41,764 bases of DNA from assembly GCA_003990765.1 (NCBI GenBank), contig RBNJ01000097.1, positions 1-41,764 on the forward strand. The letters are read 5' to 3'. Made by a program: the position numbers and the translations under genes. Positions 2,296 to 34,527 of the stretch are shown here, one piece after another. Source of the stretch: Jimgerdemannia flammicorona. Lineage: Eukaryota. Under the pieces are notes generated by a model, which saw only the letters and a list, made by a program, of their open reading frames with translations, was not told where the DNA came from and searched no databases. The number at the start of each line of letters is the position of its first letter. Positions within the stretch are counted from its first letter, which is position 1.

Positions 2296-2561
2296 TATAA
2301 GTGCACAATCTCCAAGGTACTGAAATCACATGCAATATCTGAACAAATCTGGAAATCACCTGTACAATCATGAAGCTGAGTCAAACCAAAGTCACAGCAC
2401 ACAAAGCTGAGTCAATACAAAGTCAGGAAATACATGATTTATACAAACAGAATCTTACCAATTAGGATCAAATATATATATACCAAGCACCAAGACATGT
2501 TGAAATACAGAACTATAACAAATCAAACAAACAACCTAAACTCCTAAACATATACACAAAC

Positions 2562-3652
2562 ATGACCACTGAGATCTACAACCACATCTGTACTGATATT
2601 TGGAATACCATTATCAACTAAGCCACACCCCCTCTGCCTCTTATGAATATCCATAGCCTAGTACCCCTCTACTTTGTGGAAGCTTGATGGAATGCCCTGA
2701 ACATGCTTAGTGAGGCCCACCAAATCAGACAAATCTCAAGCTACTACCAGATCAGCAGCCTCCTGGAAGACATGGTTGAATACTACTATGATATAGATAT
2801 TACCCAGATGTCTCAACACTAGAAGCTCATCACCTGCAAACACTGAGAACTCTTTTATAAGTATAGCACTATTATTCCCTACCTTCAAGTTACTACCAGT
2901 AAAATGATTGCCACTCTGTTCTATAGCCAAATTGATGATGTGATACAAGAACTCAACCACAAGTATATAGAGTATGTTCAGACCACAGATAGAACCTTTT
3001 CACCCCCTGATAACTATATCCTGCAAATGCCCAAAGTAGGATATATCATAAAGGATGTCTATAATATAATCTGATTCAACAATAATAAAGCAGAAGACAA
3101 TGATCCCTCTAATGCTGATATGACCTTGAGTCAAGAATCCCTATCAATTCTGATCACTCTGCCAATACTACTAATGAACTTACAATAGTTCATAACCACC
3201 TATGAGACTTATTGGAATAATGACTACTGGCATGAATACTAATCTGTATTCACCTCTAATTATTTTAACTATAATGAAGAGATAGGAGAATACAACCTAT
3301 ATCTCCAAACAACCCTAAAGATTGAATCAACCACTCCACCACCTGAGTATGAGCAACATGAACCACAACCACCAGCTTACTATAACCCATGACTCATAGT
3401 ACTGTAACTTATATATAGATGATATGCAGACAGCAAATCTGATGAAAGTGAAGATGATACACCCCTCCTTTACCCACCAACTCTATACCCAGCATATGAG
3501 ACAGATGATACTATTCTGTGAGATGGTGATGAAGTCTCAATATATTATTACCTCAGTGAACAGGGAGAATTAATCTGTTCCTAGATGACTACTTTATCAG
3601 AGATGATATTATTGATAGTGATGTCATCAAAGACTACCCAGACAGTGTCTAA
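2562..3652 (+). pseudogene. LTR (U3)-encoded protein of unknown function, 5' LTR copy
   Basis: ATG in an A-rich context (ACAAACATG). Reads MTTEIYNHICTDIWNTIIN*ATPPLPLMNIHSLVPLYFVEA*WNALN...TTPPPEYEQHEPQPPAYY...DYPDSV*. Stops are attributable to C>T/G>A changes; small indels occur only in the last quarter. Confidence 0.75.
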
Positions 3653-3841
3653 ATCTATAAATAGCTTAACAGTCATAGTATAGTTAGATTAGTCTTATAT
3701 GACATGACTGTAAACTGACTCAGCAGTCAGACAATTCCTTGATATATCAGATCACACTTGTACTACATAACTACATTCTCACTCAGCAAGACACTAAGTG
3801 CTATATCCATATTCAGTATAGTTCAGATAGCCCCTCACTAG

Positions 3842-3972
3842 TATAAATACCTCCTCTCCCAGACCTCAGAATCTCAGACTTGAACAATCTGAACACAACT
3901 TCTGAACACTTTCCCATAATATCTCTTTATACAACTACTCCTAATATAGCAATATTATAAATAGCAAATAAA
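3842..3972 (+). promoter_or_regulatory. Gypsy-1 LTR TATA box (3842-3847) and poly(A) signal (3967-3972), placing the U3/R/U5 boundaries
   Basis: TATAAA followed about 125 bp later by AATAAA; both conserved in the 3' LTR (~16333 and ~16455). Confidence 0.65.
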
Positions 3973-4322
3973 CCTATTTAATAATCCACAAACCACTTTT
4001 AAGTAAATCTGCTCCCCATTAGGTTCCACTTCTAACCCTGTTACAAAATTTCCTAATTGGGTATTGTCTGCAGCAATATGCTGATTCAACTAAGCTGGTC
4101 TTAGTTTCTTGAACTTTCTAAAATATGGAAAATTCTGAACATCCAGAACTAGTCCAAATAAGGACTTTGATTGAGATGTTAACCCAATCTTGAAATCAAT
4201 AAGCATAGAGGACATACTCTATATGAAATTGATCTTGACCTTAAGAAAATGGTCATCCAGAATATCTCAAACTTCCAGAAAGCCACATAATAGTTATCCT
4301 AACAAGTAACCCTCTTACAACT

Positions 4323-4334
4323 TGGTAGCAGCAG
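4323..4334 (+). promoter_or_regulatory. Primer-binding site, probably tRNA-iMet
   Basis: TGGTAGCAGCAG, 3 nt after the LTR end. TGGTA implies a tRNA with U72-A73-CCA, consistent with the A1:U72 pair of initiator tRNA. Confidence 0.7.
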
Positions 4335-5285: not shown

Positions 5286-6271
5286 ATGGCAAACCAACAG
5301 ATTCTAGATCTTATAGCCCAGGTAGCCATAATGGTAGCAACCATTACTGCTTTAGCTGAACAGATCTGACCAACCAAAAATCTGAGCCTATCTACCTTCA
5401 ATGGTACTATACAAGAAGTCCAAAGCTTCATTAGTGTAGTTGATACCAACTTCGAAGCCAATCAATGGACAAATGAGCAAGTTACTGACTGCCTTCTGAC
5501 AAACAATCAAGACTACACTCTGGAACAACTCTTTGCTACTACTTCAGCCTATGTCTGATAAGTTGTTATATTCTTCTGAGGATCTGCCAAAGAATAGTGG
5601 TGAACCCTTTCTGAAAAACCTCTCACATGGGACACCTGACCTGCAGTAGTTGCCCAGAATGCAGCAAATAATACCCCAGGATATGGAGCCCATCCTGCAG
5701 CCCCTAGACTCAAACAACTCATGATTGCTCAATACCATAGCGAAATCATGATCACTGAATCTCAAGTTAAATCTGCAATCTCAAATTTGATGTACATGGT
5801 AAGGAGTAATTCAAAACCTTCTGTACAAAACTTGAGTCACTCCTGAACACTGTTGGTCTAAAGTATATTGCCAATGATGAAGCATGAAATAGTACAAGAG
5901 CAGATCATTTATTTGATATACTGCCTGAATGGCTTACTAGAAAAATCTGAGAGCAAGGCTGCCTAGTTGGTTGTGATCACCAACAATAGTACTTGGTAAG
6001 AATTAAGACTATGGTCAAGCAAATCCTAACAGCTGGACCAATTCTGCCCTGAAGACAATTCAACAACAAGGAAAAAACTTGGACTAAGAAAGAAGAACCC
6101 AAGCATGAAGCATCTCAAGCTCCCTCCACATCTACCTCATGGATACCCAGAAATCATGAATCTACCCAGCCAAGTATCTTCAAGAAACTCACCAAAGGAG
6201 AAAGAAATAAACTTCAAAGAAGTGGAGTATACTTTTATTGCCAAAAGACAGGACACATGGCCAGTGTCTGC
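5286..6271 (+). pseudogene. gag: Gypsy-1 gag (capsid and CCHC zinc knuckle), degenerate
   Basis: MANQQILDLIAQV...LSTFNGTIQEVQSFISVV is a Gypsy capsid-like start. YFYCQKTGHMASVC at 6230-6271 fits CX2CX4HX4C with the first Cys changed TGC>TAC. Confidence 0.8.
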
Positions 6272-6349
6272 CCTAATCAAAAACCCCAAATAGCAACATG
6301 GACTACTGTTACTACTCTGTACCACCTCAACAACCTGACTACCAGAACA

Positions 6350-6757
6350 CTGGACTTTATTAAGTTCAGGCAAACTGCCAAGGTCCCAACTAAAGGAAGT
6401 CAAAAGGCAGCTGGATATGATCTGTATGCAGCCAAAGAAGCTACAGTCTCCAACTGAGAAGTCAAGCAAGTCTATATGGGAATCAGCATCCAAATCTCTG
6501 AAGGATATGTTGGAAGAATATACTGTTACAGCAGCCTAGCATTGAGAGGACTCTCAGTAGAAGAAGAAGTCATTGATGAAGATTATATAGGCAAAATTAT
6601 TGTTCTCATCTGAAATCACAGTTGGACATCATTCAAGATCCCTATTGGTTTCTGTATTGCACAGATTCTATTTGAGAAAATTGAGTCAACTCTAATAGTC
6701 AAGGAAGTCCCTGAACTACTACTCACCATTTGAGGATCCAGAGGATTTGGCTCATTG
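6350..6757 (+). pseudogene. dut: dUTPase domain of Gypsy-1, between the zinc knuckle and the protease
   Basis: All five trimeric dUTPase motifs are in one frame: AAGYDL, C(Y)SSLA (RSGLA), EVIDEDYIG (GVIDxDYxG), CIAQI (RIAQL), *GSRGFGS (RGxxGFGS). Confidence 0.92.
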
Positions 6758-6976
6758 AACAAGGCCCCAGTCCAACCTATCATGAACAAAGAAGAACAAT
6801 TCTATAAGAAAATTGAAGATAGATATATACCTGGTGGCTGATGCCCCCATAGCATTAGAATGTACTCTTCTTGAATAATTGTCAATTGCTTCTCATATAT
6901 CAATGAACTGACTCAAAGAAGAACTAATAGAAGGAAAGCTCCTATAGCTGAAATCACTACCATTGGATCAGACAAA

Positions 6977-7193
6977 CTGCTTACACTTCAAGCTTTTGTC
7001 AACTGAGCACCTGTCAAGATTATGATAGACAGCAGTATCTCAGGCATCTTCATCAATGAAGAAACAGCCAACAGACTCAAGGTCCTGACCTCCTCAGTAT
7101 AATAAACTCAAGCAGTTGCTATAGTTGATGGAACCTCTCATATCATTAGCAAGGAAGTCCACAATCTGCTCTTCAAAATTGGTGACTACTGAG

Positions 7194-7252
<59 letters not shown>

Positions 7253-9810
7253 GTCACTTGGACTCTTTCTTAATTACACCCATCTATCCTATATAAGTAC
7301 AGTGAACCCATCCCCTATCCAAACCCCCTAGGGGGGCCCCTCTCCCCTACCCCTTCTTGACAAAACACCACTCTATCAAATATAATCCCCATCCTCCCAC
7401 CACTCTGTTCACATATCCTTGCCACCAAACCTTGCTGCCACCCCCCTGAAGGACCCCAACCTGTCCACCATCCAGTCATCAGATCCCCCAACAGCTCCTC
7501 CCACCTTAAAACCTTCTTCTGTAGTCTCATCTACTGCCCCTCCTCAAACATAAATAGCCAATGTCCCGCCAATCCCACCCAAACTTCTAATACCCACCTG
7601 ACAGTGAGCCAACTATCCCCCACCCCCCCCACCAGCCGAGATCTCAAGTCCTCCCAGCGATCCCCTTCACCCACTGGCCTGCACTCCACACCCAGTCTAT
7701 TCTCTATTTCAACCCAAAAGTCCACCAAAACCTCACACACTTCCAGCCAATGTTCTGGTGTCTGCACCAAACCCCCAGCTTGCCCTACATTGTAACACTC
7801 CTCTCAATCAAAACAGCCACCATCCACCAGATGCCTAGTGCAGAAATTCAGCATAACATTCCTCCACAGCATTCGCCACCACACCACCCAGAACTTGGGG
7901 GGAAGCCACTGCCAAACCTCAGCACTCCAAGACCAGATACCTGCCTAGTCCCACTCCTTGCTGATCCCAACTGCCTGCCAACTGCTCAGCCAAAGATCCT
8001 GGCCAAGACCCTGCTGACACTCCACTCCATCCCCAATATCAAAAGCAGTAAGTAGAGCACCCCCCAGGAGTAGTCTATCCCATTGCTACATATGAGGACC
8101 CCACAACACCTCCCCCTCATTGCCTTGCAATTCTGTGTACTCCATTGATCACTCCCTACCAAAAGCCCTTAAATCACAGCCACCAAGTTCCATTGAGCCC
8201 TTCCAAAGAGAGTAGATCTCCTGAGGACCCTCAGGGGGAGGTTCTCATCTCCCACACCTTCTGCATCAGAAGTACCCAACCCCCTCCCTGTAGTTCAGCC
8301 GCTCTCTTCAATCACCAGGCTTACAAGCAGTGTAACCTCTTAGGGAAATCCACAAGACCAAGACCTCCCCTGTCCACTGGTGTCGCAAGAGTATCCCAAC
8401 TGATCTGGGACCTCCTCCCTGCCCAAATCCAATCCCTAGCCACCTTTGTCAGCCTCTTCACCACCCAAGCTGGGAAGTCTAGGTGGTATACCACATACCA
8501 CAGCTTGGGGAATCAGTATATATTCAGAATTGATACCTGCCCTGCTAGAGAGATATGGCAGCCTCCCCAACCTCGAAGGGCCTCCCCCCAAATAGCCACC
8601 CTGCTCTCCCACCACACTCATGGCAAGACAGAACCATACATAGAGAGGAAGATGTCCAGATACCATACCACTTCACCAGTAGGGACAATTGTTCCAATGA
8701 TGTCCCCACCCACCAGCCCATTCCCTAGCACCATAGTCTCACACTTATGCCAGTTGAGCTTTGCCCCAGAGTGATCCTCATACCATTCCACCATCTCCTT
8801 AAGTGCCTCGACATCTGCCACAGACCCAAGGCCAACCACCATATCATCTGCAAAGGCTCCCACCTTCCACACTATGCCAAAGATAGAGAGCCCCACCACC
8901 TTCTGGTGAATCCTATCCATTAATGATTCCAATGAGAGAGCATAAAGAATAGGGGACAAGGGGTCCCCCTGAGGAACCCCTCTTCTCAAGGTAAATACCA
9001 GACCATGGTGATCATTACACATCAGTACCGCCCAACTGCCCTTGAGCAGATTCACCATAGAAGCCTGAAATCCTGGAGGAACACCAATATGATCCAACAC
9101 CTTGCCCAGCCAAACCCGCCAGACCTGGTCATAGGCCTTCTTCTGGTCCAAAAAGACCAACCTTCCATCCAGGCCACAAGCCTGGGCCCCTTCAATGACA
9201 CCATGCACCCAAGCAGTCCCATCTCTTATAAGTCTGCCTCCAACAAAGCCCCACTGCTCCTCCCCCAGCACATGTTGGGCAACCTTCTACAGCCTTGCAA
9301 AAACCACCTTAGTCACCATCTTCCTGTCTATGTCCAAAAGCATGATTGGTCACCAGTTCTTCTAGTCTTCTCTCCTCCCCTTGTCTTTGTACAATAAAGC
9401 CACCAGCCCAAGGTCCTGCTCTCCAACCCACTCACCACTCTGAAGAACATGATCACAGAGAGCAGCCATCTCCCCCAAAATGCTGGAGACCTTGACTATC
9501 TTCTTCCAGAAGTCCCACAGTAGTCCATCCTCCCCTGGTGCTGTTCCAGTTTTAGTTGCCACAAGGACACTCTGGACCTCCTCACCTCACACTGGCAAGG
9601 CCAAGTCATCCAGTCCAACCACTTGCAGCAGCCTCCATTCTCCTAATGCATCTTCAATAGCTACCTCCTCAGCACCCCCATTGACTACTGAGTACATGTT
9701 ACTCTCCAGATCATACCATTCCCTAATAATGAAATTATCCTTAGAACCCCATAGTTAAAACAAGAGAACCCTGTGATCGATTGGGTAAACCATTTTCTGA
9801 CCATCAAGAA
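6977..9810 (+). pseudogene. Gypsy-1 aspartic protease, split by LINE-E (coding parts ~6977-7195 and 9695-9810)
   Basis: KIMIDSSISGIFI (decayed DSGA motif) before the insertion; EIILRTP*LKQENPVIDW (ILGxPWL...P.IDW motif) after it. Confidence 0.85.
7196..9681 (-). mobile_element. LINE-E: 5'-truncated L1/Tx1-type copy (RT and C-terminal part of ORF2) inserted in the Gypsy-1 protease
   Basis: Poly(T) at 7208-7249 preceded by (TA)n; exact 13-bp TSD TGACTACTGAGTA (7183-7195 / 9682-9694); RT motifs TAPGEDGL, LVFLDQKKAYD, RGVPQGDPLSP, AFADD, SGAKLN; C-terminal QTPEHWLEVC. Confidence 0.95.
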
Positions 9811-12055
9811 GAGATGCTACAACTTCAAACTGCAAGGTGAAAAGGACCCACTCAGTTCCAGTGACCCTGGACCAAAGATCACCCACATCAATAAGCTACA
9901 ACTCAAGAAATTGGCCAAGAAATGTCCTCTCTTTGCCATCTGCATCTATCCATCCAAAGGAGAACTTGAGAACTCTGAAGAAGACTTTTTCAAAGTTGAC
10001 AGCTGTATCAGACCCCTACTCCAGAAATTCTGAGATATCTTCCCAAAGAAACTTCTAAATGGCCTACCACCTAAATGAGCAGTAGACTATATCATCAAAA
10101 CCATCACAGATGCCAAGCCAGCCTTCAAATCAATCTACCACATATCTCTGAAAGAAATAAATGTACTCAAGAAGGAAATTGATGAACTTCTAGAATAAGG
10201 ATTCATCAAACCCAGTATATTACCCTATGGTGCACTAGTCCTCTTTGTTGTCAAAAAAGGAGAAGACCTGTGAATGTGTATTGATTACTGTAACCTCAAT
10301 GGACAGATCATCAAGAACTGTTGTCTGCTATCCAGAATCAATAAAATATTCAATAGGCTTACCAACCCATAATTCATAAGCTCTTTTGACCTGTGAAATA
10401 GTTACTGGCAAATTGCAATAAAAGAAGTAGATACATATCTACAAGACAGTCTTCCAAACTTGCTATGGACACTTCAAGTTCCTGGTTATGCCTTTTGGCT
10501 TAACTAATGCTTCTGCAACCTTCCAGACTCTGATGAATACCATCCTGCACCCATATCTGAACAAATTTGTTATTGTCTATAATGATAACATTCTAGTCTT
10601 CAGCAAAACCCTGGAGGAACATCTCAAACATCTTTAACTAGTACTACTGAAACTCCAAGAAAACTGACTCTTTGTAAAACTCAGCAAATGTGAATTTCTC
10701 AATCAAAGTGGACTCCAGCAAAATCTCAGCAATCAAGGATTGGCTCAGACCAAAGAAGCTGAAAGATCTCCAGTCATTCCTGGGGTTAGCAAACTATTAC
10801 AGATGATTTGTTGCCAACTTTACCAAGATTACTACTGCCCTTACCAAAATGACCAAGCACAATAAGAAAGAAGAATAGCTGTAGACTATGAAACAAGAAA
10901 AAGACTTCAACAATCTTGTAAATTAGGGACCCAAACAAGATACAGCCTTTTAAGTACTGAAAGATATATTGATAACTACTCCAGTGCTTCAAGTGGCAAA
11001 TCCTGCTCTATCATATGAAGTTACTACTAATGCCTCTGACCTAGCTCTTGGAGCAGTGCTCATGCAAGAAAGACACCCCATGGCCTATCACTCCCACAAG
11101 TTCAATGATGTCAAAATTAACTATATAACCCACAAGAAGAAAATACTAGCTATTGTAGACACTCTGATCAAATGGCCACCATATCTAGAAGAAGCACACT
11201 TCACTATATTGACTGATTACAAATCATTAGTCAACATCAAGACCCAGGCTACTCTTTCTTAAAATTAAGCCAGATGGATGAAAGTTCTCACCAACTTTGA
11301 CTATGAAATCCAGTATCACTCTGGCAAGAAAAATATTGTTACCAATGCAATCTCCAGACTACCAATCAAAGAAGTTATCCAAACCCTCACATTGGTTACC
11401 AACTCTATCATAGAATAAATTATCACAATATGTACTGATGATAAAGAAGCTCAAGCACTCCAAGAAATTCTGAGTAGTGACAATGCTGACAAGTATACCC
11501 AGTATAACCAACACCAACTGAAGGACAATACGATCTACTACAAGAACAGATTGTATGTTCCAAACAATCAAGATCTCTGAAGAACTATCCTATTCAAATA
11601 TCATAATGTCCCTATAGCTGGACATTTAGGATTTGACAAATACTATGAAGTTATTTCCCAAAACTTCTATTGGCCCTACATGGTAGATCAGCTCAAGACC
11701 TATATCACTTCCTGTGATACCTACCAATATAACAAGTCCTCAACACTAACAAAACCTGATCTACTCTACTCTATTCCAGTACTATCTGCTAATTGGGAAC
11801 AAATCTCTATAGACTTCATTGTACAACTACCCCAAACCAAGAATGGGAAAGATACAATTATTGTCATTGTGGTCTATCTAGCAAACAAGCCCACTATGCA
11901 TACCTTGGAATGAAACTTGTACTATCTACAGCCTTTCACTCTGAAACTGATGGCCAAACTGAAAGAATGAACCGAACTCTGGAACAAATGCTAAGGAACT
12001 ATGTTTCCTACAGACAAGATAATTGGCATGAATACCTCACTGCAGTCAAGTTTGC

Positions 12056-13636
12056 TTTTGTTTTTTTTTTTTTTTTTTTTTTTTTCTATAGGCTGTAGCC
12101 TTATTTATTAACTATCTATAATATGCTATATGTCCTTATGCAACATCAGTAGTCCCATTCTACCCCAATCTCAACCCACCTTCACATTTACCCAGCCTTA
12201 TATCTTTAGGGTGTGAGTTGCAACCTTACTGTCTGAGTAACTAGATCCTCCTACTCAGCCTGCCCCACCCAGTGGGTATGGGTTATGAGCCCCAACCACC
12301 TCAAGTACTTGGCATCTAGTGCATCTGACCTACCCCTATTAGTGCCTTCTGTCTTACCCATCTAGCCCATCTTATCTGTCTTACCTGCTTATATTGCCCA
12401 TGTTATCCATATTGCCATCTTGTTATCTTACCCATCTTACCCATCTTGCCTGTCTTGCCTATCTTGCCTGTCTTGCCCACTCATATTGCCTGTATTGCCT
12501 GTATTACCCATGTTGCCCATGTTACTCATATTGCCCATTTTGCCCATTTAGTCTGTCTTGTCTATATTATTTATCTTAGCATCTGCCTGTCTTGCCTATA
12601 TCACCCATCTTGCCATCTTGTCCATCTTGCCCATCTTGCCTGTCTTGCTCACCCATGTTACCCATGTTGTCTATATTGCCCATTTTGCCCATGTTGCCTA
12701 TGTTGCCTATATTGCCTGTGTTGTCTATATTGTCTATATTGCCTGTATTGCCTGCCCATATTGCCTGTATTGCCCATGTTACCCATTTTGCCCATTTTGC
12801 CCATCTTTCTCATATTGTCTGTCTTACTGTCTACCCATCTTGCCTATGTCACCCATCTTACCATCTTGCCATCTTGTCTATCTTACTCATCTTATCTGTC
12901 TTGCCCATCTTGCCTGTCTTGCCTATGTTACCATCTTGTCATCTTGCCATCTTGTCCATCTTGTCTGTCTTACCTGTCTTATCTGTCTTGCCCATCTTGC
13001 CTACCTGTATTGCCTGTGTTGTCTGTATTGTCCATGTTGCTCATATTGCCTATATTGCCCATTTTTCCCATTTTGTCCATATCACCTATCTTGCCATCTG
13101 CCCATCTTGCCTAATGTCACTCATCTTGCCATCTTTCTGTCTTGCCCATCTTGTCTATCTTACCCATCTTGCCCATCTTGCTTGCCTGTATTGCCCATAT
13201 TGTCCATGCTGCCTGTATTGCTCATATTGCCTGTATTGTCTGTATTGCCTATATTGTCCATATTGTCTATTTTGCCCATCTTGCCCATGTTACCTATCTT
13301 GTTGTCTGCCTATCTTGTCCCTGTCACCTGTCTTACCATATTGTCTATCTTGGCCATCTTGTCCATCTTACCTCTCTTGCCCCTTTTGCCTGTCTTGTCA
13401 CTGTCTTGCCATCTTGCTGTCTTGCCATCTTGCCCAAAATTCTTGAAATCTTTGTAACTTGCTGAAACTAGAAGCTATGGTTACACTGAAAAGTCCAGAT
13501 GGGACTCCTATACCTAAGGAATGAGGTACATCTGTTGGTGCTCCTTAGAGCCTATGCTTGTGGCCTCCAAAACTTGAGATGCTCACCCTCTTGGTGGGCT
13601 TAGATGTGTGGGAGCAGTATGCTGTCTTCTGTCAAC
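12056..13636 (-). mobile_element. Non-autonomous poly(A) retroposon (1581 bp): unique head, 9-mer VNTR and unique tail
   Basis: Exact 16-bp TSD CTGCAGTCAAGTTTGC (12040-12055 / 13637-13652); poly(T) at 12056-12085; minus-strand AATAAA at 12104-12109. The integrase frame resumes after the right TSD (AVKFAYNNS). Confidence 0.93.
12349..13436. repeat. Degenerate 8-9-bp tandem repeat (~1.1 kb)
   Basis: Units CCCATCTTG, CCTGTCTTG, CCTGTATTG and CCCATGTTG are all derivable from CCCGT(C/A)TTG by CpG decay and a few other changes. Confidence 0.95.
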
Positions 13637-14169
13637 CTGCAGTCAAGTTTGCCTATAATAACAGCAAGCAAGCCTCTCTTGGAATGACCTCATTCTTTGC
13701 CAATACAGGACAAAACCCAACCACTTCTCTGACACTTATCTGGACTGCTGACAAACCCTCTACAGTTGAAGCTATTGAAGAATTCCTACTCTGAATGCAC
13801 AATATAAGCCAGATCACAATTGAGAACTTATTATGAGCCCAAGAACAACAGTTACAGTATGATAACCAATACTACCAAGAAGAAACATTCAATATCAGAG
13901 AAAAGGTCCTACTAGACATCTGAGGATACTAAGTTGACAACCTTAAACACAGACTATCTACATAGCTGAATAGCAAGTTTATTGGATTATTCAAAGTTAT
14001 CATACAAGTCTCTCCAACCTCCTACAAATTGGTGTTACCAGACACTATTAAGGTCCACCCAGTCTTTAATGTCCAACATCTCAAGCAATATAATGAAAAT
14101 GATAACAAGCTATTCCCAAACTGAACCACCAAACCACCTGCACCTATTATTATTAATGATCAAGAAGAA

Positions 14170-14331
14170 TATAAAGTTGAACAAATCCTCAATAATTGCA
14201 GCCACAAGAACCATCCAGAGTATCTTATCAAATGGAAAGATTATTCAATCCATGATGCAACATAGGAACCCAAGACTAATCTCTAGAATACCACTGACTT
14301 AGTTCAAGAATATGATTCCTTGAACAACTGA
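14170..14331 (+). other. Chromodomain at the integrase C-terminus
   Basis: YKVEQILNNCSHKNHPEYLIKWKDYSIHDAT*EPKTNL matches the chromodomain pattern Y.VE.IL...YL.KW.GY...TWEP..NL; the aromatic-cage Y, W and Y are present. Confidence 0.92.
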
Positions 14332-14734: not shown

Positions 14735-14747
14735 AAGAAGGGGAGAG
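14735..14747 (+). promoter_or_regulatory. Polypurine tract of Gypsy-1
   Basis: AAGAAGGGGAGAG, 1 nt before the TG that starts the 3' LTR. Confidence 0.9.
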
Positions 14748-14748
14748 T

Positions 14749-16818
14749 TGTAAGCACACAAACTCCAAGCCACTGAAATCACACATCACTCTCCAAACAA
14801 GCCACTGAAATCATATGTGACATCTGAACAAATCTGGAAATCACCTGCACAATCATGAAGCTAAGTCAAACCAAAGTCATAGTGCATAAAGCTGAGTCAA
14901 TACAAAGTCATGGAATAAAAGATTTATACAAACAGAATCTTATCAATCAGAACCAAATATATATACTGAGCACCAAGATGTATTGAAATACAGAACTACA
15001 ACAAACCAAACAAACAACCCCAACTCCTGAATATATACACAAATATGACCACTGAGATCTACAATCACATCCATGCTGATATTTGGAATACCATTGTCAA
15101 CTGAGCCACACCCCCTCTGCCTCTCATCAATATTCATAGTCTAGTACCCCTCTACTTCATGGAAGCCTGATGGAATACTCTGAACATACTTAGTGAGGCC
15201 CACTGAATCAGACAAATCTCAAGCTACTATCAGATTGACTGACTCCTGGAAGACATGGTTGAACATTATCATGATATAGATATTACCCAGATGTCTCAAC
15301 ACTAGAAGCTCATTGCCTGCAAATACTGAGAACTCTTTTATGAGTATAGCACTGTTATTTCCTACCTTTGAGTTACTACCAGTGAAATGATTGCCACTCT
15401 ATCCTATGGCCAAATTAATGACATGATACAAGAACTCAATCATAAGTATATTGAGTATATTCAGACCACAGACCGAACTTTCCCACAGCCTGATGACCAC
15501 ATCCTGCAAATGCTCCAAATAGAATATACTATGAAGGATATCTATGATATAATCTAATTTGATAATAATGAAGCAGAAGATAATGATCCCTTTGATACCA
15601 ATATGACCTCAAGCCAAGGATCCCTGTCAACCCTGATCACTCTGCCAATACTGCCAATAAACTTACAATAGTTCATAACCACCTACAAGACTTATTGGGA
15701 TAATGATCACTAGTACAAATACCAACCCACATTCACCCCCAATTATTTCAACTATAATGAAGAGACAGGAGAATACAACTTGTATCTCCAGACAATCCTC
15801 AAGATTGAACCAACCACTCTACCACCTGAGTATGAGTGACATGAACAACAGCCACTAGCTTATTACAACCCCATGACTTATAGTGCTGTAAATTATAGAA
15901 GATATGCAGACAGCAAATCTGATGAAAGCAAAGATAATACACCCCTCCTTTGCCCACCAACTCCATACCCAGTATATGAGATAGATGATACTATCCTGTG
16001 GGACAGTAATAAAGTCCCAATGTATTATTACCTCAGTAAATAGGGAGAATTAATCCATAAACAACTCTTCCTAGATGACTACTTCATCAGAGATGATGTC
16101 ATCAATAGTGATGTTATATAAGACTACCCAGATAGTATCTAAATCTGTAGATAGCTTAGTAGTCATAGTATAGTTGGATTAGCCTTATATGACATGACTG
16201 TGAACTGACTCAGCAGTCAGACAATTCCTTGATATATCAGATCATACTTGTACTATATAACTGCATTCCAACTCAGCAAGATACTAAGTACTATATCCAT
16301 ATTCAGCATAGTTCAGATAGTCCCTCACTAGTATAAATATCCCCTCTCCCAGACCTCAGAATCTCAGACTTGAACAATCTGAACACAACTTCGGAACACT
16401 TTCCCACAATATCCCTTCACAACTACTCTTAGTATAGCAATATCATGAATAGTGAATAAATTTATTTAATAATCCACAAACTTCTCTTAAGTAAATCTGC
16501 TCCTCATTAGGTTCTACTTCTAACCCTGTCACAAAATTTCCTAATTGGGTATTGTCTGCAGCAATATGCCAATTCAACTAAGCTGGTCTTAGTTTCTTGA
16601 ACTTCCTGAAATATGGAAAATTCTGAACATCCAGAACTAGTCCAAATAAGGACTTTGGTTGAGATGTCAATCTGATCTTGAAATCAATAAGTATAGAGGA
16701 TGTACTCTATATGAAATTGATCTTGACCTTAAGAAAATAGTTATCTAGAATATCCAGAACTTCCAGAAAACCCTTCCAGAACTATGTAACAGTTACTCTA
16801 ATAAGTAACCCTCTTATA
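14749..16818 (+). repeat. Gypsy-1 3' LTR (2070 bp)
   Basis: TGTAAG...CTCTTATA (terminal CA changed to TA); direct repeat of 2296-4319; followed by the TSD. Confidence 0.95.
15045..16142 (+). pseudogene. LTR (U3)-encoded protein of unknown function, 3' LTR copy (366 codons, no frameshift)
   Basis: ATG at 15045 to TAA at 16140-16142 in one frame. Several internal TGA stops align with CAA in the 5' LTR copy, implying ancestral CGA. Confidence 0.78.
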
Positions 16819-19800: not shown

Positions 19801-22420
19801 CTGGAGCCCAGCCCTGACACTCAGTGAGTATAAATTCAGTAATCTACCCAAAACTGTCACCCCTAGTCAACTAAGGAGCTCAACCTCTCAATCTCCATCC
19901 AATCATCCAACCCACCACTTCTGCCTCTCATTCCTCTCCTGCTATCAGTCCTGTCTATCCTAGTATTATATACTATATTGAAATAACCACCCAGACAATC
20001 AATCCCTGCCTCACCCATAACACTAGCCTTTCTCAAGCCTCTGATCCAATCTACATATTCCCCCCTCTCAGCCAGGCAATAATATGATCCAACAGTCAAA
20101 GGGTTCCACCCAGGCCTCTTCCATACTCCCCACACCAATCTACTCCCCCAATGTCCAATATCTCCAATGTCCTGTATCCCCTTTCAAACCAGAATGCCCA
20201 CCCACTCAGTCCACATAGCTGCCCCACCCTATTCTCTAGTCCAGTTCTGTAAATCTATATCTACCCCATACCACACATTCTGTAGTAAGAAGAGATCCAC
20301 ATCTAGCCCCTTCAACCAGCCAAAGATATTCCTTTACCATACCACACCCCTCAATCCATTCATATTCAAAGAAAAGATTCTAGTTATACTGTTCGTATTG
20401 AATAATATTTGATATTGAGAACCCATCCTAGTACTCCATACTCATCTCATCACTAGTCAGTTCTAAGCACTACTCCACCTCCAACTCCTCTTCCACTACA
20501 GCCTGAGCATCCAGTGCTTCTAAGATTTCCTGACACTCCACCCCATCCATCACCTCCATTTCTATCTGATAATCCATGCATAACCAATCTCCACTTCTCC
20601 AAACCCTTTCTCAATCTCTATAAGTATATTGCCTGATCATTCACAATCTCTCAAAGGGCCTCCTCCCTCTGATCATCAATCTGATACTCCTCCAACTCTA
20701 AGAGCACTGCCAAGATCTCATTTCTAATCTTTTTTGGCACCTCCTCACTATGGAGAATTTCCTCCCAGTACCTATCACTTAGAACCCAGAAGTCCTCTCT
20801 CCCTAGCTCCTCAGCCACCACCCCCTCCAGAGTCTTCTACAGCCACTTCTCTTCATTCACCACCTCAGCAACACTCTGGGCGACCCTTTCAACTCCCACC
20901 ACAGGGTCCACCAAAGCACTCCTCCTCCCTGACTCATCCCACTCCTCTTCTAGCACAACCAGGAGTTCCTCCTCACCACCCTCCCCACCCAGGACACTAT
21001 ACTGAGAGTGTACTCCCTCTACCATTTTAGCATCCTCCTCTACACTGTCTCATCTCTTCTCACTTGATCTACCCTATGCCACACCCTGAGCCAGCCTGCT
21101 CTCCCCAGCCCAGACACTCTCTCTCAATCCAGCACTATCTTTGTCTACTCCACCACCTACTATACTCTCTCTCAATTTCTCCATCAGCTCCTTCTGGATT
21201 CACCTCCCCTGTAACTTCTCCCAGACTACCTTGTCTATCCTAATTCTCTTTTTATCTACAATCTCCACCATTGTCTTAACTTCATACTCCTTCCAAGCCA
21301 ATCTTCTCCTCTCTACTGCTCCTGTCAGATCCTTGAGAGCCTCCAACAAGTCCTCTTCTTCCTCTGGTGTCCCTTTCACCCATGAGACCTTATATTCATC
21401 AGGCCCCACTTAAGAGTTGCTGGCCAGTCTCTCATCTTCCCTGTATTCTCTCTTCCAGCCAGTCTTACTCTGATATTGACATCTCTTGTTCAGAGTTCAG
21501 TACCCTCTCAGACTCTGAACCCAATATCTATAATCTCCCCATACTCCTTGACTGCCTCCACAATCAGCTCCCTGGCCCTCTCCCTCAACACCATAGAAAG
21601 ATCCAATACTGTCAACTATACCACTTGGAGGTCCCAGTACATGCACCTGGCCATAGGAACCACCACTCACCCACGATCACCCCCTTCTCCATGGCCTCCA
21701 ATATTGATGCCTCTTTCTCAAATCCAATCTCGATCTCTTCTTTCCCCTTCAAGAACTTCACTGAAGCTGCCCCTTTCACCTCCTGTACCACTAGCCCCAG
21801 AATCATCCTTACAGTCACTTCTAAGCCTCAGAAGTACAATGTGATAGCAAATTCTAACCTTGACTTTTTGAGTAATGGTGCCAACACCATACCAGTCATG
21901 CCATCTGCCAGGTCCCCAGGCATCATGCCCTCCCTATGACCAACAACTATCACATCTGGTTTTTTTTCCAGATTCTCAGTCACAGCTCCATCAGCAGTCA
22001 TATCTTTAGCCCCTACTCCCTCCCTCTCCCTACTGCCCAAACCTCCTATGAAAGCCCCTCTCTGTCCCCCAACTGAAGCTGTCAATATCTTCTCCAGTCC
22101 TAACCAACTATTCAGACCAGATGCCATTCTCCCCATCTTGACCTTGTCAGCAAAAGATGTCCTCTCCCCTCCTTGTTGCCTCAATCTGCCCCTCCCCCTA
22201 CCACTAATGCTACAGCCAGCCATAGAAGGCTCTGGTATCTCCAACTGTCTCCTCACCTCCTCTCTACATGCTACTAGTCCAAGGCACTGCTGCTCCTCTA
22301 GATGATATACTAATCAGTACATTCATTGCTGTCTATGTTAATAGTCTCCTTTCACCAAAAACATTGCAAAAAGTGTTGTCTGAGTCTTGTGTCATCTGAA
22401 CGTTACTGGTGAAAGGTATG
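16824..22420 (-). mobile_element. LINE-B: near full-length degenerate L1/Tx1-type element (ORF1 ~20428-22340; ORF2 from 20396 leftwards)
   Basis: ORF1 is homologous to that of copy A. The ORF2 start has decayed to ACG at 20396. Motifs GERPTRFL, KGTAPGEDGL, FLDQEKAYDRV, LQGDSLSP and AFVDN (AFADD); shared 5' leader. Confidence 0.93.
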
Positions 22421-24046: not shown

Positions 24047-25097
24047 TATAAGTATACAACCTTCAAACCACTGAAGCCACATATTACTCTCAGAATAAAT
24101 CTGAAAATTATATGCAAGATCATAAAGCTAAGTTAAACTAAAGTTACAGAATATAAGATATATGAAAACAAACCCTTACTAATCAAGATTGAAAAGTATA
24201 TATATTGAAAATACAATGTGACAAAATGAAGAACTACAATAAACTATAAGAATAACTACAACTTTCAAATATATATCCAGATATGACCACTAAAGTCTAT
24301 AACTATATCCATGCTAACATTTGAAATACTGTGGTCAATTTAGCTATAGCACATCTATCTTTTATAAATATCCATAGTTTAGCTCTTCTTTACTTTATAG
24401 AATCATAGTGAAATACTCTAAACATACTTAGCAAGACCCACCAAAATGAACAAATCTCAAGCTACCATCAAATTAGCTATCTCCTAGAAGTTATGGTTAA
24501 TTACTACCATAATACAGATACTACTGAAATATTATAATATCAGAAATACATTACTAGCAAATACTGGAAATACTTCTACAAGTATAGTACCTTTAGTTTC
24601 TACTTCTGTGTCACTATAGCTGAAATGATTGTCACTCTGATCTATGACAAAATCAATGATATGGTATAAGAACTCAATCAGAAATACATTGAGTATGTCC
24701 AAATCACAGACAGATCATTTCTCTACTCAGATGATCAAATCCTGCAAATGTCTCAAGTTGGATATGCCATGAAGGATATCTATGATATAATCTAGTTTGA
24801 TAATAATAAAGTAGATGACAATAACCCTCTCTGACACAGAGATGACTTCTAGTTCAGAATTCCTACCAACTCTGATTACTCTGCCAATATTACTAATAAA
24901 CTTACAATAGTTCATATTTGTCTATAAGATCTACTGAGACAATAACAATTGGCATAAGTACTAATCAATATTTATGGCTGACTACTTTAACTATAATAAA
25001 TAAACAGAAGAATACAATTTATATATCCAGACAACCTATAAGATAGAATCAATAATCCTATTGCCTAAGTATAAGTAATATAAAGAATAACTACTAG

Positions 25098-25643
25098 TAG
25101 TGCTCCAAATGAGCTGATCCCAATCAGATTCGAATTCCATCTGTATCAACTTAATGGGATTTGAATCCTATCCAGATTGATTCAAATCAACCATTGTTTT
25201 GGTTTTCAAATTAAACAATTAAATGTTTACATCAATAACTCAATAAATAATCATCCAATTTTGATGATCTTGGTGTCATTTGAAAGCCCTTAATAAGGCC
25301 TTTCTAATTATACTGAGAATATTAAAATCAGATTACACATTACCGAGCTAATAAGGAAAACATTCTTTTGAAGAAATTTTCAAAATTGATAAGTCAGATG
25401 TTTTCCTTAATAACTCAGCAATGCATGATCCAATTTCAATGTTCTTGGTATCATTATAAAGACTTCATTAAGGGCTTTCTAATGACACTATGATTATTCA
25501 AAATAGATGATTATTTATGGAGTTATTGATGTTAACCTTTAATTGTCTAATTTGGAAATCAAAATAATGATTGACCTAGATGGGATTCAATTCAAATCCA
25601 ATCCAAATCCAATTCAGATTAAATTTACTCATTCAGAGTACTA
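25098..25643. mobile_element. hAT-type MITE / foldback element (546 bp)
   Basis: TIR TAGTGCTCCAAATGAG...CTCATTCAGAGTACTA; 8-bp TSD ACTACTAG / ACTACCAG; the empty site ACCACCAG is visible in the 5' LTR (3368-3375); ~180-bp internal inverted arms. Confidence 0.88.
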
Positions 25644-25909
25644 ACTACCAGCTTATTAGAACTCTACAACATAGAGCACCATAACCTACTGAAGATATAC
25701 TAATAGTGAATCTGATGAAAGTGAAGATGATACATATATATATCCCTCCTCTGTCTACTAATATTATATTTGGTATAGAAGGCAGATGATGCCATTCTGT
25801 GGGATGATAACTTTGTTCTAATATATTACTATATAAATGAATAGAGAGAAGTAATCCAAGAATTACTCTTCCTAGATAATTACTTTATCAAAGATAATAT
25901 CATTAATAG

Positions 25910-26988
25910 TGTGATGAGTAATAGAATTATACTACTGAAATCATAAATTAGCCATATACTATATCTAGTACACTAAGCAACCAAAACTGCTTTATGGCAC
26001 CAACTTGTATATTTAGCCAGAGATACCAGAAACAGTATGTTTACCTATACCCTTAAGGAATACTTATCATAGTTAGCAATCTATAGTTAGTAACATAGTA
26101 ACCAATAGCAACCCCAACTGTATAAATTACCCCAGAGACAAGAGTGAATAAACCTTAGTCCAAATTGAATCTAAAGTAAAAGTCAAGTCTGCCTACCACA
26201 CTTTGAGAAGAACTCTATAGCTACTACTAGGAGATTGTGAGTAAAGTATTCCTTTCCACTCCAGTTCACTTTCTGATATAAAGAAGAGTTTGTTATATTT
26301 TTGATTCACTTGCCAGATAAGTCTGAAGAATCTGAGTTACCCATATTCCCAGAGAGCCCACTTTAAGAAACCTTGCTATTAGCCAGTCTATTAGATATAA
26401 CTTCATTGTGATTCAATCATGCAAACAAAGCCAGTCTTTGACATAACTTACCAAGAACCTAAGATATTGAGCTATGTATGCCATCTGAGTTATTAGTTTG
26501 TTCCCAGTGAGTCTGATTCAGAGAACCCATGCCACTCTCTATTCTTAGTAAGCTGCTGACTTAGGAAGAATCTGCTATCAGTATAATTCCCAGTGAGTCA
26601 TTTCAGGAGAATCAGTATCTAAATCAAGTTATTTGCTAAATTACCAGAATATCACATATAAGGAACTCACTATACTATACAAGATTATTATGCTAGAAAT
26701 CACATACTTTTGGAAACAAGACTGTAACCCAGGAATTGCATACTTTTGGAGATTGTTATGCAGAAATCACACACTTTTGGAGATTGTCATACCATATATG
26801 TACAAATTGCCACTACACCCAGAGAACTATCTCAATATAGAAATCACTCACAGATATCTAGCTTTAACTATTATATCATTAAAAACTAAGAATATTTTAT
26901 TACTTTTAACAAAGTAACTGTGGGCTCAAGCCAAACTATATCAACCCCCAACCTTGTAATTTGCCTTCATTGAGCCAGACATGTTACA
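25910..26988 (+). repeat. Gypsy-2 5' LTR (1079 bp)
   Basis: TGTGATGAG...TGTTACA; direct repeat of 34528-35625; TATAAA at 26121, AATAAA at 26147. Confidence 0.95.
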
Positions 26989-26990
26989 TT

Positions 26991-27007
26991 TAGGAGCTCA
27001 ACTGGGA
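26991..27007 (+). promoter_or_regulatory. Degenerate primer-binding site, tRNA-Pro type
   Basis: TAGGAGCTCAACTGGGA, 2 nt after the LTR. It differs from the tRNA-Pro PBS TGGGGGCTCGTCCGGGA mostly by G>A/C>T changes. Confidence 0.7.
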
Positions 27008-27555
27008 AGATTTCAAAATTGATGTGACTTTTCAGCTCACAAGAACCCATAGTCAAACTGGATATATTTGATCAACACCAATCTCTACCACTATAGGAGA
27101 ACCAGTCATCACCAGTATTTGGACAGGAAGAGAAGTAATTATCTTAAGACTTGCCAACTACACAGTATCAAAAGGATCTCAATCAGAACCAGAAGACAGT
27201 ATAGCCTAAAATCCTCAATCAGATCAACCAGACAATACAGACAGTCCTGTTAGAGATTTTGAAGAACTTGCCCAAGAACTAAAAGACATCATCATATAAA
27301 CCTGAAATCATATAGCCAGATATCTCACAGTAGTCCTGCCAATCTCACCTATAGAATCTTTACCACCAGCCCTTGCAGAACTGGAAGCAGCTCCTTCAAG
27401 GATACCTAGGCTCATTCCACTTCAACCAAGATCTGCAACACTCTCCTTGAGATACTCAATTACTTCCACTCCCAGCAATAGTTCAAGAAGTGAATCAGAG
27501 TCAGAATCCGAATAAATCTGGACCAGAACCAGAATCAGAAAAAAGTGATAACAAA

Positions 27556-28457
27556 ATGGCCACCTCATTGCCAACCTTTGCAGGATATCTGGAGGAAGAC
27601 CCTAGAGAATTCCTTGATGGAATTGGAGGAATTGCAGCTCTGAGAAATCTCTCAGATGAAAAGAAAATTACCATCTACATGACCCAGCTCAGAGAACCAG
27701 CCAGAGGAATTTTTCACTGAATAGCAAATGATCTGAATTCAGAACTAGTAGCAGAAATAGAAGCAGCAGCATCTTTTCAGCTGGAATACGTGGCCATGGT
27801 CCACTGGCTTATTGAAAAATATGCAGGAAATGAAATCTGCTACAAGGCTCAAGAATCTATCATGAGGATAAAGAGGAATCTTAGAGAATCACCCAGAGCC
27901 TTCTTTACAAGAATCCAGAAGAGAATGCATGCAGCTGGGTTCAATGCTACCAACTAAGACATCATAGGTCCAATGACCTTCATGAATGAAATTCCCCTGA
28001 ATATTGCCCAGCATATCCACACCCTAGGCATCAGAAGGTCTGAAGAGCAAGTAGATGCAGCCCAAGGATTCTTTGATATCAGACAAGGAACCACCTGGAG
28101 TGACAATGACAAGAAGAATAATAAAGAAGACATCCAGGTCAAGGCCCTACAGGGACTCCTTCAAGGATAAGAAAGATCTGAAGAAAGAAGACCAGTTAAA
28201 GAAGGAAAGAAGGATAAGAGTGAAATCCAAGACCTTAGTTCCAAGTTGGACCAATTGGTTGAACAGATTGAAAAACTCACTATATGCAAAATCAGAGTTA
28301 TCAAGACAACAGAGGATACCCACCTCAGAGGAGCCAAGGTTATCCACTAAGAGATAATAGGAACTATCAGCAAGAAGAAAGAAGATATCCTGTCTGAGAC
28401 AGAGCCCAAGTCCAATACTTCTACTGTAGACAATTCAGATACTATGCCACTGAATGT
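27556..28457 (+). pseudogene. gag: Gypsy-2 gag (capsid and CCHC knuckle)
   Basis: MATSLPTFAGYLEEDPREFL is a Gypsy capsid motif; YFYCRQFRYYATEC at 28416-28457 is a decayed CX2CX4HX4C. Confidence 0.85.
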
Positions 28458-29069
28458 GAGAACAAAAGAAGTAACTGAAGGGACTCAGAACTACCAAACT
28501 AAAGGAATGACACTAAGTATAAGAAGGCTGAAACCCATCCTGTCAAAGATTTTGAAGAAGCAAGCAATAGTGAAGACTACAGTGACCTAGACTTGTACCC
28601 TACCAAAGTCATCACCTGAGAGACAGTCCATCTAGCAGTAAAAAGGAAGAGACCTGTAGGAAGGTCATCCGGGAATATCAGCAGAAGAATCATCCAAGAA
28701 GAATACAAAAAACATGAAGAAGAACAAGTAGAAACACTTCTCCAGACTCCTTTACCTTTTGTTCCCAAGACAAATGAGTTGCCACTAGAGAATGAAGAAA
28801 TGAAGCAAGAAGATCAGGAACCTAATGCCCCAAAGCCCAAGAAGAAGTACATCTGAAGACCATGCCCAGAGATATCTACAATAAAGCCTGACAGAAGATC
28901 CAAGAAGCCAAGATGGAAGTTCCTCTCTTGTAGTTCCTGCAACTGAGACTAGCTGGAGTCTAAAACAAATTGCTAAGAACCACTGGGTCCATTACTGGCC
29001 AAGTTCCAATCCCACAATAAGAGCCAGCTTCCATTTCTATCCAAGCTGCAGAAAGATATATCAGCACCT

Positions 29070-29420
29070 ACCTATATGGAGATATTAAAGGACAAAAGGT
29101 GAAAATCCTCATAGATATAGAAGCAGCTATCTGTATTATTGCCAAATGATTCCTGGATACCCTCTAATGGCCCATTGATGGACCATCCAATCACAGCATT
29201 ATAGTAGCAGATAGAGCCTGAACTCAACTCCTTGGAGAAGTATGAAACATCACTATTTCCCTTGGACATATTCAGTTCTCCATCCTGAAGGATGTTGTTA
29301 CCAAGGCTGTCACCTATGATGATCCTTGATACCAACTGGATGAAGGAAATGAATGCAGTTATTGATATCAGTCAACAAGTACTCAAGTTTGACTACCAAG
29401 GCAAGAAGTATAGAGTCAAG
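29070..29420 (+). pseudogene. Gypsy-2 aspartic protease
   Basis: KILIDIEAAICI (decayed DTGA motif) at ~29102 and MILDTNWMKEMNAVID (ILGxxW motif). Confidence 0.8.
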
Positions 29421-30706
29421 GTGACCAGCTATGAGCAATCAAAGAGGAAGAAGAAGGTCACAATCTAGGAAGAATATACCAATAGTGAGGAATCTACCAT
29501 AGAAGAGAAAGAATCTGAAGATAGAAATGATCCCAGACTCAATTGCCAAATTAATTTGATAGATGAGAGGCCAGAAGACAACATGTGGGTCAAAAATACT
29601 GTCCCCATCACCATTGGAGCCATTGTAGGAGAAATCAAAGGATGCCCTATCTGCCTCAAGAGACACAAGTGCCCTGAGCACTCCTCTAAGATTATTGAGT
29701 CAAGGAATTCACCTAGCACAGCTTTCCTTGAGTGCAGAAAGAGGAAAAAGAAATGCAGACATGTTCTAGAAACACCTATAGCTGAAGCTGCAATTTGGAA
29801 TTAAGAATCATCTGAGGAAAAAGAAGCTCCTGACCAAGAAGTTCCTGAACAAGAAATACCCAAAGAAGAAGAAGTCTCTGAACTCATTCTCTGGGATAAC
29901 CCTTGCTGGATACCACCTGAAGATGATGACCTCTGGAATATTGAAGAAGGATTCAGTATAATCCCCATTATTTCAAAGAAAGAAACACACCAAGAAAGAG
30001 CTTTCTGGCTAGGAAGATGTCTACATCAAATGGTCTTCCACTCTCTCTGAGACTACTGATATCAGTGCTATCTACTGGATCAATAGGATAGACAGAGGCT
30101 CAAAAGACCAGAACCCCCAACTATAGTCATACAGTCAACTACCTTTCAAGAAGTTACCACCAGATTGCAAAGCTGATTTAGAGGATAAGGTCTCTTCATC
30201 TGAACAGAAGTATATCCATTGTCCAACCTTCCCACAACTTATGACTAAGATGGGTACTGATTTCTGAAACAATAAGAAATCAATAACTGGGAATATCATT
30301 TCCAAGAAATGAGATATTGTAATCAAGGAAAACACCCAGACTACTAAGACTGCAGACATCAGATGATTCACCTCAGTCATGATATTGCAATCAATATCTT
30401 GAAGAGAGGAGATAACAGAGGCCAGATCCAAAAAAGCCAGACCAAGAGGGCAGGAAGAAGAATCCTCAAGATTTATGATTTAGGAGAAGACATTTTAGTG
30501 CTCATCAGACATACAATCCACCAAGGATAGATAGAAGATACCACCAACTCTTCATGGAAGCCCTGGACCCTATAGGAAAAAGAGGAATCAACTATCTCTG
30601 AGACCTCTCTACTGAAGCCAGATGGCCACACCTCAATCTTAGAGCCTGGAGACTCCCTGCTAGTGGAGCTTTAGCCCAAGGATAGCCCAAACTCAGTAAG
30701 GATAAT

Positions 30707-34475: not shown

Positions 34476-34527
34476 AATGATGACTAAAGGATTGTCTGAG
34501 GACAGACCATCCTTTAGTAGGGGCTGA

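Follow-up and report, generated by a model that had tools for sequence, protein, structure and literature searches.

A few complex retroviruses are characterised by genes carried within the U3 region of the long terminal repeat (LTR). In the mouse mammary tumor virus (MMTV), a vertebrate betaretrovirus, the superantigen gene sag is located in the U3 of the LTR, and its product, Sag, is a type II membrane glycoprotein. Meanwhile, nef of the primate lentiviruses and bel/tas of the foamy viruses are 3′ accessory genes which start upstream of the LTR and overlap U3. Here we describe a reading frame in the LTRs of a Ty3/gypsy chromovirus from Jimgerdemannia flammicorona, which is likely to be the remnant of a real, once-selected gene. 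It was found in a stretch of 41,764 nucleotides (contig RBNJ01000097.1, positions 1 to 41,764; this whole stretch is hereafter called the window). The frame, which we call the LTR gene, begins with an ATG at 2562 in the 5′ LTR, at 15045 in the 3′ LTR, and at 24283 in a third, older LTR copy, and in the 3′ LTR it ends with a TAA at 16140-16142. Like sag, the whole gene would sit inside U3 (here a predicted one), and thus in both LTRs and 3′ of pol. Unlike sag, its host element is a Ty3/gypsy chromovirus, and its protein displayed neither a hydrophobic segment nor a Pfam match. With nef and bel/tas it shares the position of an accessory-type gene at the 3′ end that reaches U3, but the frame in the window starts 286 bp inside the LTR, and no sequence likeness to these genes was found.

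Outside the retroviruses, the additional open reading frames (aORFs) of plant LTR retrotransposons have been reviewed in a paper which defines the internal region as the sequence between the LTRs (PMC7264820), and aORFs have also been described in LTR retrotransposons of rotifers (PMC5408684). Judging by the accessible portions of these two papers, the LTR gene resembles such aORFs in being an extra open reading frame (ORF) of unknown function beside gag-pol, lineage-specific and, as is often the case among them, without recognisable domains. It differs from them by lying wholly inside the LTR, and no aORF placed inside an LTR turned up in the accessible portion of PMC7264820. Chromoviruses that bear a dUTPase include PosPlaTy3 of Postia placenta, elements of Phanerochaete chrysosporium, and Tmt1 of Tuber, and the accessible part of the paper describing them contains a figure legend in which some elements are marked with an "add. 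ORF" whose function is unknown (PMC2864245). The element in the window shares with these a chromodomain and a dUTPase within a Ty3/gypsy polyprotein; the text of that paper available to us, its figure aside, does not place an ORF in the LTR. Two more candidates for an ORF in the LTR or U3 (PMC6673714 and PMC10787394) were irrelevant, as far as their accessible portions go. Across open-access text, with subscription journals and supplements outside the scope, no case of an ORF in the LTR or U3 of an LTR retrotransposon was found. We regard the LTR gene as an additional ORF of a Ty3/gypsy element located in the predicted U3, a layout whose other known examples come mainly from a few retroviruses.

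The LTR frame and its relative P0002

The initial annotation had proposed a protein gene in the LTR, with an ATG-to-TAA frame at the three places given above. The coordinates were correct, with the ATG conserved in all three copies, and the frame turned out to be open in none of them. Accordingly, an ORF listing with a minimum of 150 aa returned 9 ORFs in the window and none at the LTR frame. The copy in the 3′ LTR (LTR3), the best preserved of the three, is interrupted by 13 internal stops (7 TGA, 4 TAG, and 2 TAA). All three copies in the window are pseudogenes.

Evidence for a former gene came from a protein search with the translation read through these stops. Against 5.8 billion proteins, 1 of 176 candidates was scored. 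This was P0002 (E = 4.7e-96), an intact protein of 247 aa encoded on a public contig of 998 bp. P0002 aligned to codons 115-365 of the frame without leaving it, with 158 of 251 positions identical (63%), 199 positives, and two in-frame gaps of 2 residues, and its C-terminus matched that of the frame (...YPDSI). The residues of P0002 that face the six stops of this part of the window frame are Q, Q, W, Q, N, and A. The earlier claim that the 3′ copy has no frameshift therefore stands against P0002 across 251 codons, the frame being interrupted by stops instead. A search among shorter proteins (30-134 aa) scored 0 of 76 candidates, lengths of 135-199 aa lying outside the search.

The other two copies are more damaged. 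In the 5′ LTR (LTR5), P0002 matched in two frames by tblastn, at 2904-3575 and 3575-3649. In the third LTR copy, the gene is present in pieces at 24283-24828, 24857-25087, and 25779-25907. Relative to LTR3, this copy displayed indels of 1 and 8 bases and an insertion of about 550 bp at 25098-25646, and it is cut at 25910 by a nested element. Meanwhile, the stretch 14971-15589 had zero indels among the three copies.

P0002 is a strongly acidic protein (isoelectric point, pI, of 4.05; 46 Asp and Glu against 10 Lys and Arg residues), with 9.3% Tyr, 9.7% Pro, and no Cys. Its highest hydropathy over 19 residues was 0.97 (the two proteins checked gave 0.97 and 1.22), and because of this low maximum no membrane segment is expected. 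No domain had been recognised in the frame initially, and profile searches agreed with this, since Pfam yielded no family at E ≤ 1 for P0001 or P0002 and the PDB profile search gave 0 matches at E ≤ 1. AlphaFold2 modelling of P0002 as a single sequence resulted in a mean pLDDT of 35.9 and a pTM of 0.21, a low confidence that does not prove disorder. In the ESM Atlas, P0002 is present with an identical sequence; its model there has a pLDDT of 0.39, no feature matches, and a best TM of 0.30. The C-terminal 50 residues mix acidic with bulky aromatic and aliphatic residues, a pattern typical of protein-binding or activation segments. Judged from composition only, the product may be a soluble, largely disordered adaptor that acts in trans.

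Known types of protein were also considered and rejected. A Gag origin found no backing in BLASTP of P0002 against P0003, the closest polyprotein to that of the window element (best E 0.06, in the gag part), PF03732 gave no match, and a comparison by hhalign of the gene alignment A3 with 8 polyproteins gave a probability of 0.12. An Env-like aORF was dismissed on account of the missing hydrophobic segment and the pI of about 4, and a Sag-like protein on account of the lack of a Pfam family at E ≤ 1 and the maximum hydropathies of 0.97 and 1.22.

Coding signal, decay, and related public contigs

Stops were counted against 500 shuffles that preserve dinucleotides, with the frame split at codon 115 because the only intact relative starts there. 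Codons 115-366 of LTR3 contain 7 stops, the terminal one included, where 20.2 ± 4.2 were expected, and the matching part of LTR5 contains 7 where 19.5 ± 4.1 were expected. In both copies, 0 of 500 shuffles reached a count as low.

Selection was tested on transversions only, on which C>T decay has no effect, between LTR3 and the third copy, which represent two LTR subfamilies. Across codons 115-355, transversions at codon positions 1, 2, and 3 numbered 14, 5, and 24 (n = 43; binomial p = 0.001 for position 2). Of these, 15 were synonymous and 22 non-synonymous, with 6 skipped as they touch stops. The synonymous share was 0.405 against an expected 0.140 (p = 7e-5), which corresponds to a ratio of non-synonymous to synonymous change (dN/dS) of 0.24 on transversions. 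The two other + frames, used as controls, gave 8/29 and 3/26. A comparison of subfamilies on transversions had been suggested in the initial annotation and was carried out here on a small scale. Since both copies have also decayed neutrally after insertion, the true constraint was stronger than the value of 0.24 indicates. These results show a gene that evolved under purifying selection while the LTR family diversified, with an intact version elsewhere. The proposal of an LTR protein gene thus holds for the past, as supported by the P0002 homologue, the depletion of stops, and the dN/dS, none of which depends on the CpG argument of the initial annotation, while the copies in the window are dead.

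The N-terminal part is less clear. Transversions in codons 1-114 were distributed as 5/8/10 by position, with 6 synonymous versus 14 non-synonymous changes. The A content by codon position (0.36/0.37/0.18) displayed a period of 3 which the LTR flanks lack, and 6 of the 7 stops are read as sense in another window copy or in a public contig. Coding is plausible but weakly supported for these 114 codons. The gene measured at least 251 codons (from the ATG at 15387) and probably about 365 (from the ATG at 15045).

The two LTRs of the element differ by 225 transitions and 25 transversions. CpG is at 0.06 of its expected frequency in the whole window, TpG is in excess (1.30), and the two LTRs contain 0 and 2 CpG. 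The window copies are eroded mainly by C>T and G>A changes, in a region nearly without CpG. The pairing of TGA at 15204 and 15369 with CAA at 2721 and 2886, pointed out in the initial annotation, was confirmed in the LTR alignment. The accompanying argument that every stop can be explained by such decay does not discriminate, since any stop is one transition away from a sense codon. LTR3 and LTR5 have 6 of 13 stops in common (codons 20, 42, 87, 95, 171, and 209), and the third copy shares those at codons 42, 171, and 209. Because the two LTRs of a single element start out identical when it integrates, stops that both share at non-CpG sites, for example those of codons 87 and 209, point most readily to a progenitor in which they were present before, and the six stops common to both LTRs indicate that the element was probably inserted with its gene already dead.

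Public metagenomes provided further members of this family. Of the words sampled from the 3′ LTR, 5-11% were found in four soil-metagenome runs and two runs of "organism A" (4 studies). Contigs from 4 runs were aligned at a likeness of at least 80%, resulting in 2081, 301, 427, and 351 pieces. These displayed C opposite a T of the window at 132-140 places per run and G opposite an A at 64-65 places, with at most 12 places for each class of transversion, and their loose ends retain CpG. Given the excess of C and G and the retained CpG, the window copy is a transition-decayed member of a larger, better-preserved family. In the substitutions read by position (40 of 492 rows), the T at 15303, which creates the stop of codon 87, was C in nearly all of the public contigs (depth 1814.7/1816.7, 19/19, 68.5/68.5, and 133.7/142). 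In loose ends read in frame by eye, codons 66 and 109 were sense, and a P0002-like peptide was found near codon 338. Among the 12 indels listed, 9 fell at 16417-16515, and inside the gene only a −1/+1 pair was found, five bases apart in one contig. The public contigs are thus nearly free of indels in the frame, and these cluster just downstream of it.

Element architecture and the surrounding window

The LTR retrotransposon within the window is 14.5 kb long, with a gag-pol interior between two direct repeats of about 2 kb. Self-BLAST aligned 2313-4317 with 14798-16816 at 86.5% identity across 2027 columns, and the LTR ends were refined by eye to those listed in Table 1. The LTR termini are TG...CA, the 3′ end being eroded to TA, and TAAG and TAAA around the element are a possible 4-bp target duplication. 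The 3′ LTR opens with a tandem duplication of about 28-39 bp (14759-14800) which is absent from the 5′ LTR, and one public contig skips 32 bases near it, at 14797-14830.

Table 1. Positions of the chromovirus, its LTR gene, and associated motifs in the window
Feature	Position	Strand	Remarks
5′ LTR	2302..4319	+	TG...CA; self-BLAST against the 3′ LTR, ends by eye
LTR-gene pseudogene in the 5′ LTR	2562..3652	+	Stops; three indels versus LTR3 (1, 4, and 10 bases)
Sequence like a primer binding site, TGGTAGCAGCAG	4323..4334	+	TGGTAG..., 3 bases past the 5′ LTR; read from the sequence
Decayed gag-dUTPase-protease-RT-RNase H-integrase-chromodomain	5292..14316	+	Insertions at ~7189-9704 and ~12038-13576
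Polypurine tract, AGAAGGGGAGAG	14746..14757	+	Stops 1 base ahead of the 3′ LTR
3′ LTR	14759..16817	+	Predicted U3 from 14759 to ~16360, R ~16360-16475, U5 to 16817
TATATATA, candidate LTR-internal promoter	14958..14965	+	87 bp 5′ of the ATG; an A/C-rich leader comes next
LTR gene, codons 1-114	15045..15386	+	7 stops; coding plausible, weakly supported
LTR gene, codons 115-366	15387..16142	+	Well-supported coding part, 251 codons and TAA; pseudogene with 6 internal stops
TATAAATA, putative main LTR promoter	16332..16339	+	190 bp 3′ of the gene stop; kept at 3842 in the 5′ LTR
AATAAA, putative polyadenylation signal, end of R	16455..16460	+	Kept at 3967 in the 5′ LTR
Third, older LTR copy, diverged subfamily	24121..25911	+	~70% identical; segments 24121-25097 and 25647-25911

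The order of Pfam domains on the + strand, called on translations that read through stops, was dUTPase (PF00692, E = 2e-25, at ~6377-6754), a weak aspartic protease (PR) 3′ of it, RVT_1 of the reverse transcriptase (RT; 1.5e-15), RT_RNaseH (7e-24), Integrase_H2C2 (1.5e-14), SH3_Tf2-1 (9e-11), and Chromo (4.7e-10). The succession of PR, RT, RNase H (RH), and integrase (INT) with a C-terminal chromodomain, together with the LTR pair, the primer binding site, and the polypurine tract, identifies a Ty3/gypsy chromovirus (Metaviridae, Chromovirus), and the dUTPase within the polyprotein is a feature shared with the dUTPase-bearing fungal chromoviruses. The closest polyprotein, P0003 (1964 aa, on a 28.7-kb contig), also carries a dUTPase and a chromodomain and is 42% identical across the RNase H-integrase part. 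Its residues 211-1962 are collinear with the decayed coding region by tblastn, and the two breaks in between are other inserted repeats. The next named relatives, from pine, orchid, a basidiomycete, and a moth, are at 29-36% identity. One insertion in the integrase region (12056-13434) begins with a run of 30 T, followed by about 115 copies of the 9-bp unit TTGCCTATC, 67% matching.

Public contigs displayed the same junctions. One runs on from the LTR end into CAACTTGGTAG, and in loose ends from two runs the polypurine tract is joined to the LTR start. As the LTR start is joined to an identical polypurine tract and the LTR end to an identical primer binding site, the family has the same layout elsewhere. 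A pattern of 25 letters across the junction of polypurine tract and LTR returned 0 matches in JGI metagenomes.

About 430 bp separate the end of the pol region from the polypurine tract, which means that the LTR frame does not continue pol. In both LTRs, TATAAATA is followed by AATAAA 123 bp on (3842 and 3967; 16332 and 16455). The gene ends 190 bp 5′ of the former and 313 bp 5′ of the latter, in agreement with the earlier remark that the frame lies upstream of the LTR promoter motif. Because both motifs are 3′ of the gene in both LTRs, the gene at 15045-16142 is predicted to lie wholly within U3. An element with an A/C-rich leader had also been reported about 80 bp upstream of the frame; this is TATATATA, which is present in both LTRs (2473 and 14958).

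The whole window consists of nested mobile elements, and no ordinary gene was seen; known RNA families numbered 0 across it. The insertion of about 550 bp in the third LTR copy is AT-rich with internal inverted repeats, and resembles a small non-autonomous element of the type of miniature inverted-repeat transposable elements. A second chromovirus-like element (25910-35625) has inserted into the third copy of the LTR, close to codon 354 of the gene. Its LTRs (~25910-26988 and 34528-35625) are 79% identical, and its interior contains a dUTPase at 30761-31117 and RT-integrase matches. With P0002 as query, no relative of the LTR gene was found in the LTRs of this second element. On the opposite strand, an intact ATG frame of 482 aa without a Pfam match occupies 690-2138, in a GC-rich (57%) repeat which recurs at 20210-22415 and, inverted, at 36064-37840. 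The translation of the adjoining stretch resembles the start of an endonuclease of long interspersed nuclear elements, and the 482-aa frame is possibly ORF1 from a non-LTR retrotransposon. A strong GC skew changes sign near 22 kb and again near 36 kb, tracking the orientation of the repeats.

Proposed role, alternatives, and significance

We propose that the frame descends from a family-specific protein gene lying wholly inside the predicted U3 of a Ty3/gypsy chromovirus, added to a backbone of gag-dUTPase-PR-RT-RH-INT-chromodomain. U3 occurs once in the genomic RNA, at its 3′ end, and the replication of LTR elements places a copy at each end of the DNA. Such a gene would therefore be duplicated with each transposition, as the initial annotation had argued from the same standard scheme. 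In the genomic RNA the gene would sit 3′ of pol, and its translation may depend on a 3′-terminal subgenomic transcript or on a transcript begun at TATATATA in U3. The product would be acidic (pI ~4), rich in Tyr, Pro, Asp, and Glu, largely disordered, and soluble, and it would act in trans on a protein of the host or of the element, as an adaptor or in the manner of an activator rather than as an enzyme or envelope protein. The protein seems not to be required in cis, because the element appears to have been inserted with the gene already broken. It would have been dispensable there either through supply in trans or through transposition without it. We lean towards this explanation as a whole, with the U3 location and the trans-acting protein included, and regard any specific function of the protein as doubtful.

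Several observations weigh against this explanation. None of the three copies in the window is intact. The first 114 codons contain 7 stops against 8.2 ± 2.6 expected (39.6% of shuffles are as low), their dN/dS of 0.41 (p = 0.066) is suggestive only, codon 42 is a stop in all three copies, and P0002 itself begins at a Met opposite codon 115. Counted across all 366 codons, the frame has more stops (14) than the antisense frame −1 (10). The selection test draws on 43 transversions from the comparison of two decayed copies. A single homologue was found, its placement in an LTR is deduced from the window and the public contigs, and with 1.2% Arg it is possibly partly CpG-decayed itself. HMMER against 1.84 billion representatives returned P0002 alone, with a profile spanning the 247 C-terminal positions. 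Peptide patterns in JGI metagenomes led to 0 of 592 confirmed, and in IMG/VR the gene alignment A3 confirmed 0 of 106 and P0003 confirmed 0 of 5. The U3 assignment uses motif positions only, and the function is read from composition alone. Furthermore, the progenitors of the window insertions probably lacked a working gene before insertion, and transposition with a broken gene speaks against the gene being needed in cis.

These points bear differently on the alternatives. If the frame were no gene at all, it would be a by-product of an A/C-rich LTR with a composition of period 3, and P0002 would be an artefact of gene calling on a short contig. The stop-poorer antisense frame, the lack of stop depletion in codons 1-114, and the fact that a single transition can account for any stop would all fit such a by-product. 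Nevertheless, the stop count of codons 115-366 was reached by none of the shuffles in two copies, an open frame of 247 codons with 63% protein identity and in-frame gaps only is not expected from non-coding drift, and the transversions favour position 3 and avoid position 2, which those of the control frames do not. This explanation is disfavoured and very improbable. Alternatively, the frame may be a passenger, a fragment from a host gene or a different mobile element that was transduced into U3, open at capture, of no service to the element, and now decaying. Such an origin would suit an orphan protein without a Pfam, PDB, or Atlas relative and unlike the polyprotein of the element (as the hhalign comparison indicates), as well as an element that seems to have moved with 6 stops already and whose gene has a single intact relative. 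However, the dN/dS of 0.24 between the two LTR subfamilies places the constraint in a period when the sequence already belonged to the LTR, the public contigs are nearly without indels in the frame yet have them just downstream, and no relative of a host gene was found among the 5.8 billion proteins. We consider a passenger unlikely.

A real gene might also lie outside U3. Were transcription to start at TATATATA (14958), the frame would be located in a very long R or leader, as an "ORF0" ahead of gag, and the occurrence of this motif and the A/C-rich leader 87 bp before the ATG in both LTRs speaks for such a layout. Against it, the conserved TATAAATA and the AATAAA that follows are both downstream of the gene, which is the usual arrangement of U3 and R, and R regions as long as about 1.5 kb would be uncommon among LTR elements. 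We judge this placement to be quite unlikely.

Returning to a once-selected gene in U3, a bolder extension is that every LTR, solo LTRs included, would be a self-contained cassette with the TATATATA promoter, the leader, the gene of about 365 codons, and the poly(A) signal of the LTR, whose product, an acidic, aromatic-rich factor acting in trans, raises the transcription of the family or blunts silencing by the host. We regard this as improbable. If true, a Ty3/gypsy element would possess a regulatory gene in the style of retroviruses, and thousands of solo LTRs could supply the factor.

Should a chromovirus prove to carry a selected gene entirely within U3, this layout would have arisen outside the retroviruses as well. 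If the gene is confirmed, annotation pipelines that treat LTRs as non-coding can miss genes, and solo LTRs are possibly not inert. As an orphan for which searches of billions of sequences gave a single relative, the protein would represent new biology in any function that it has.

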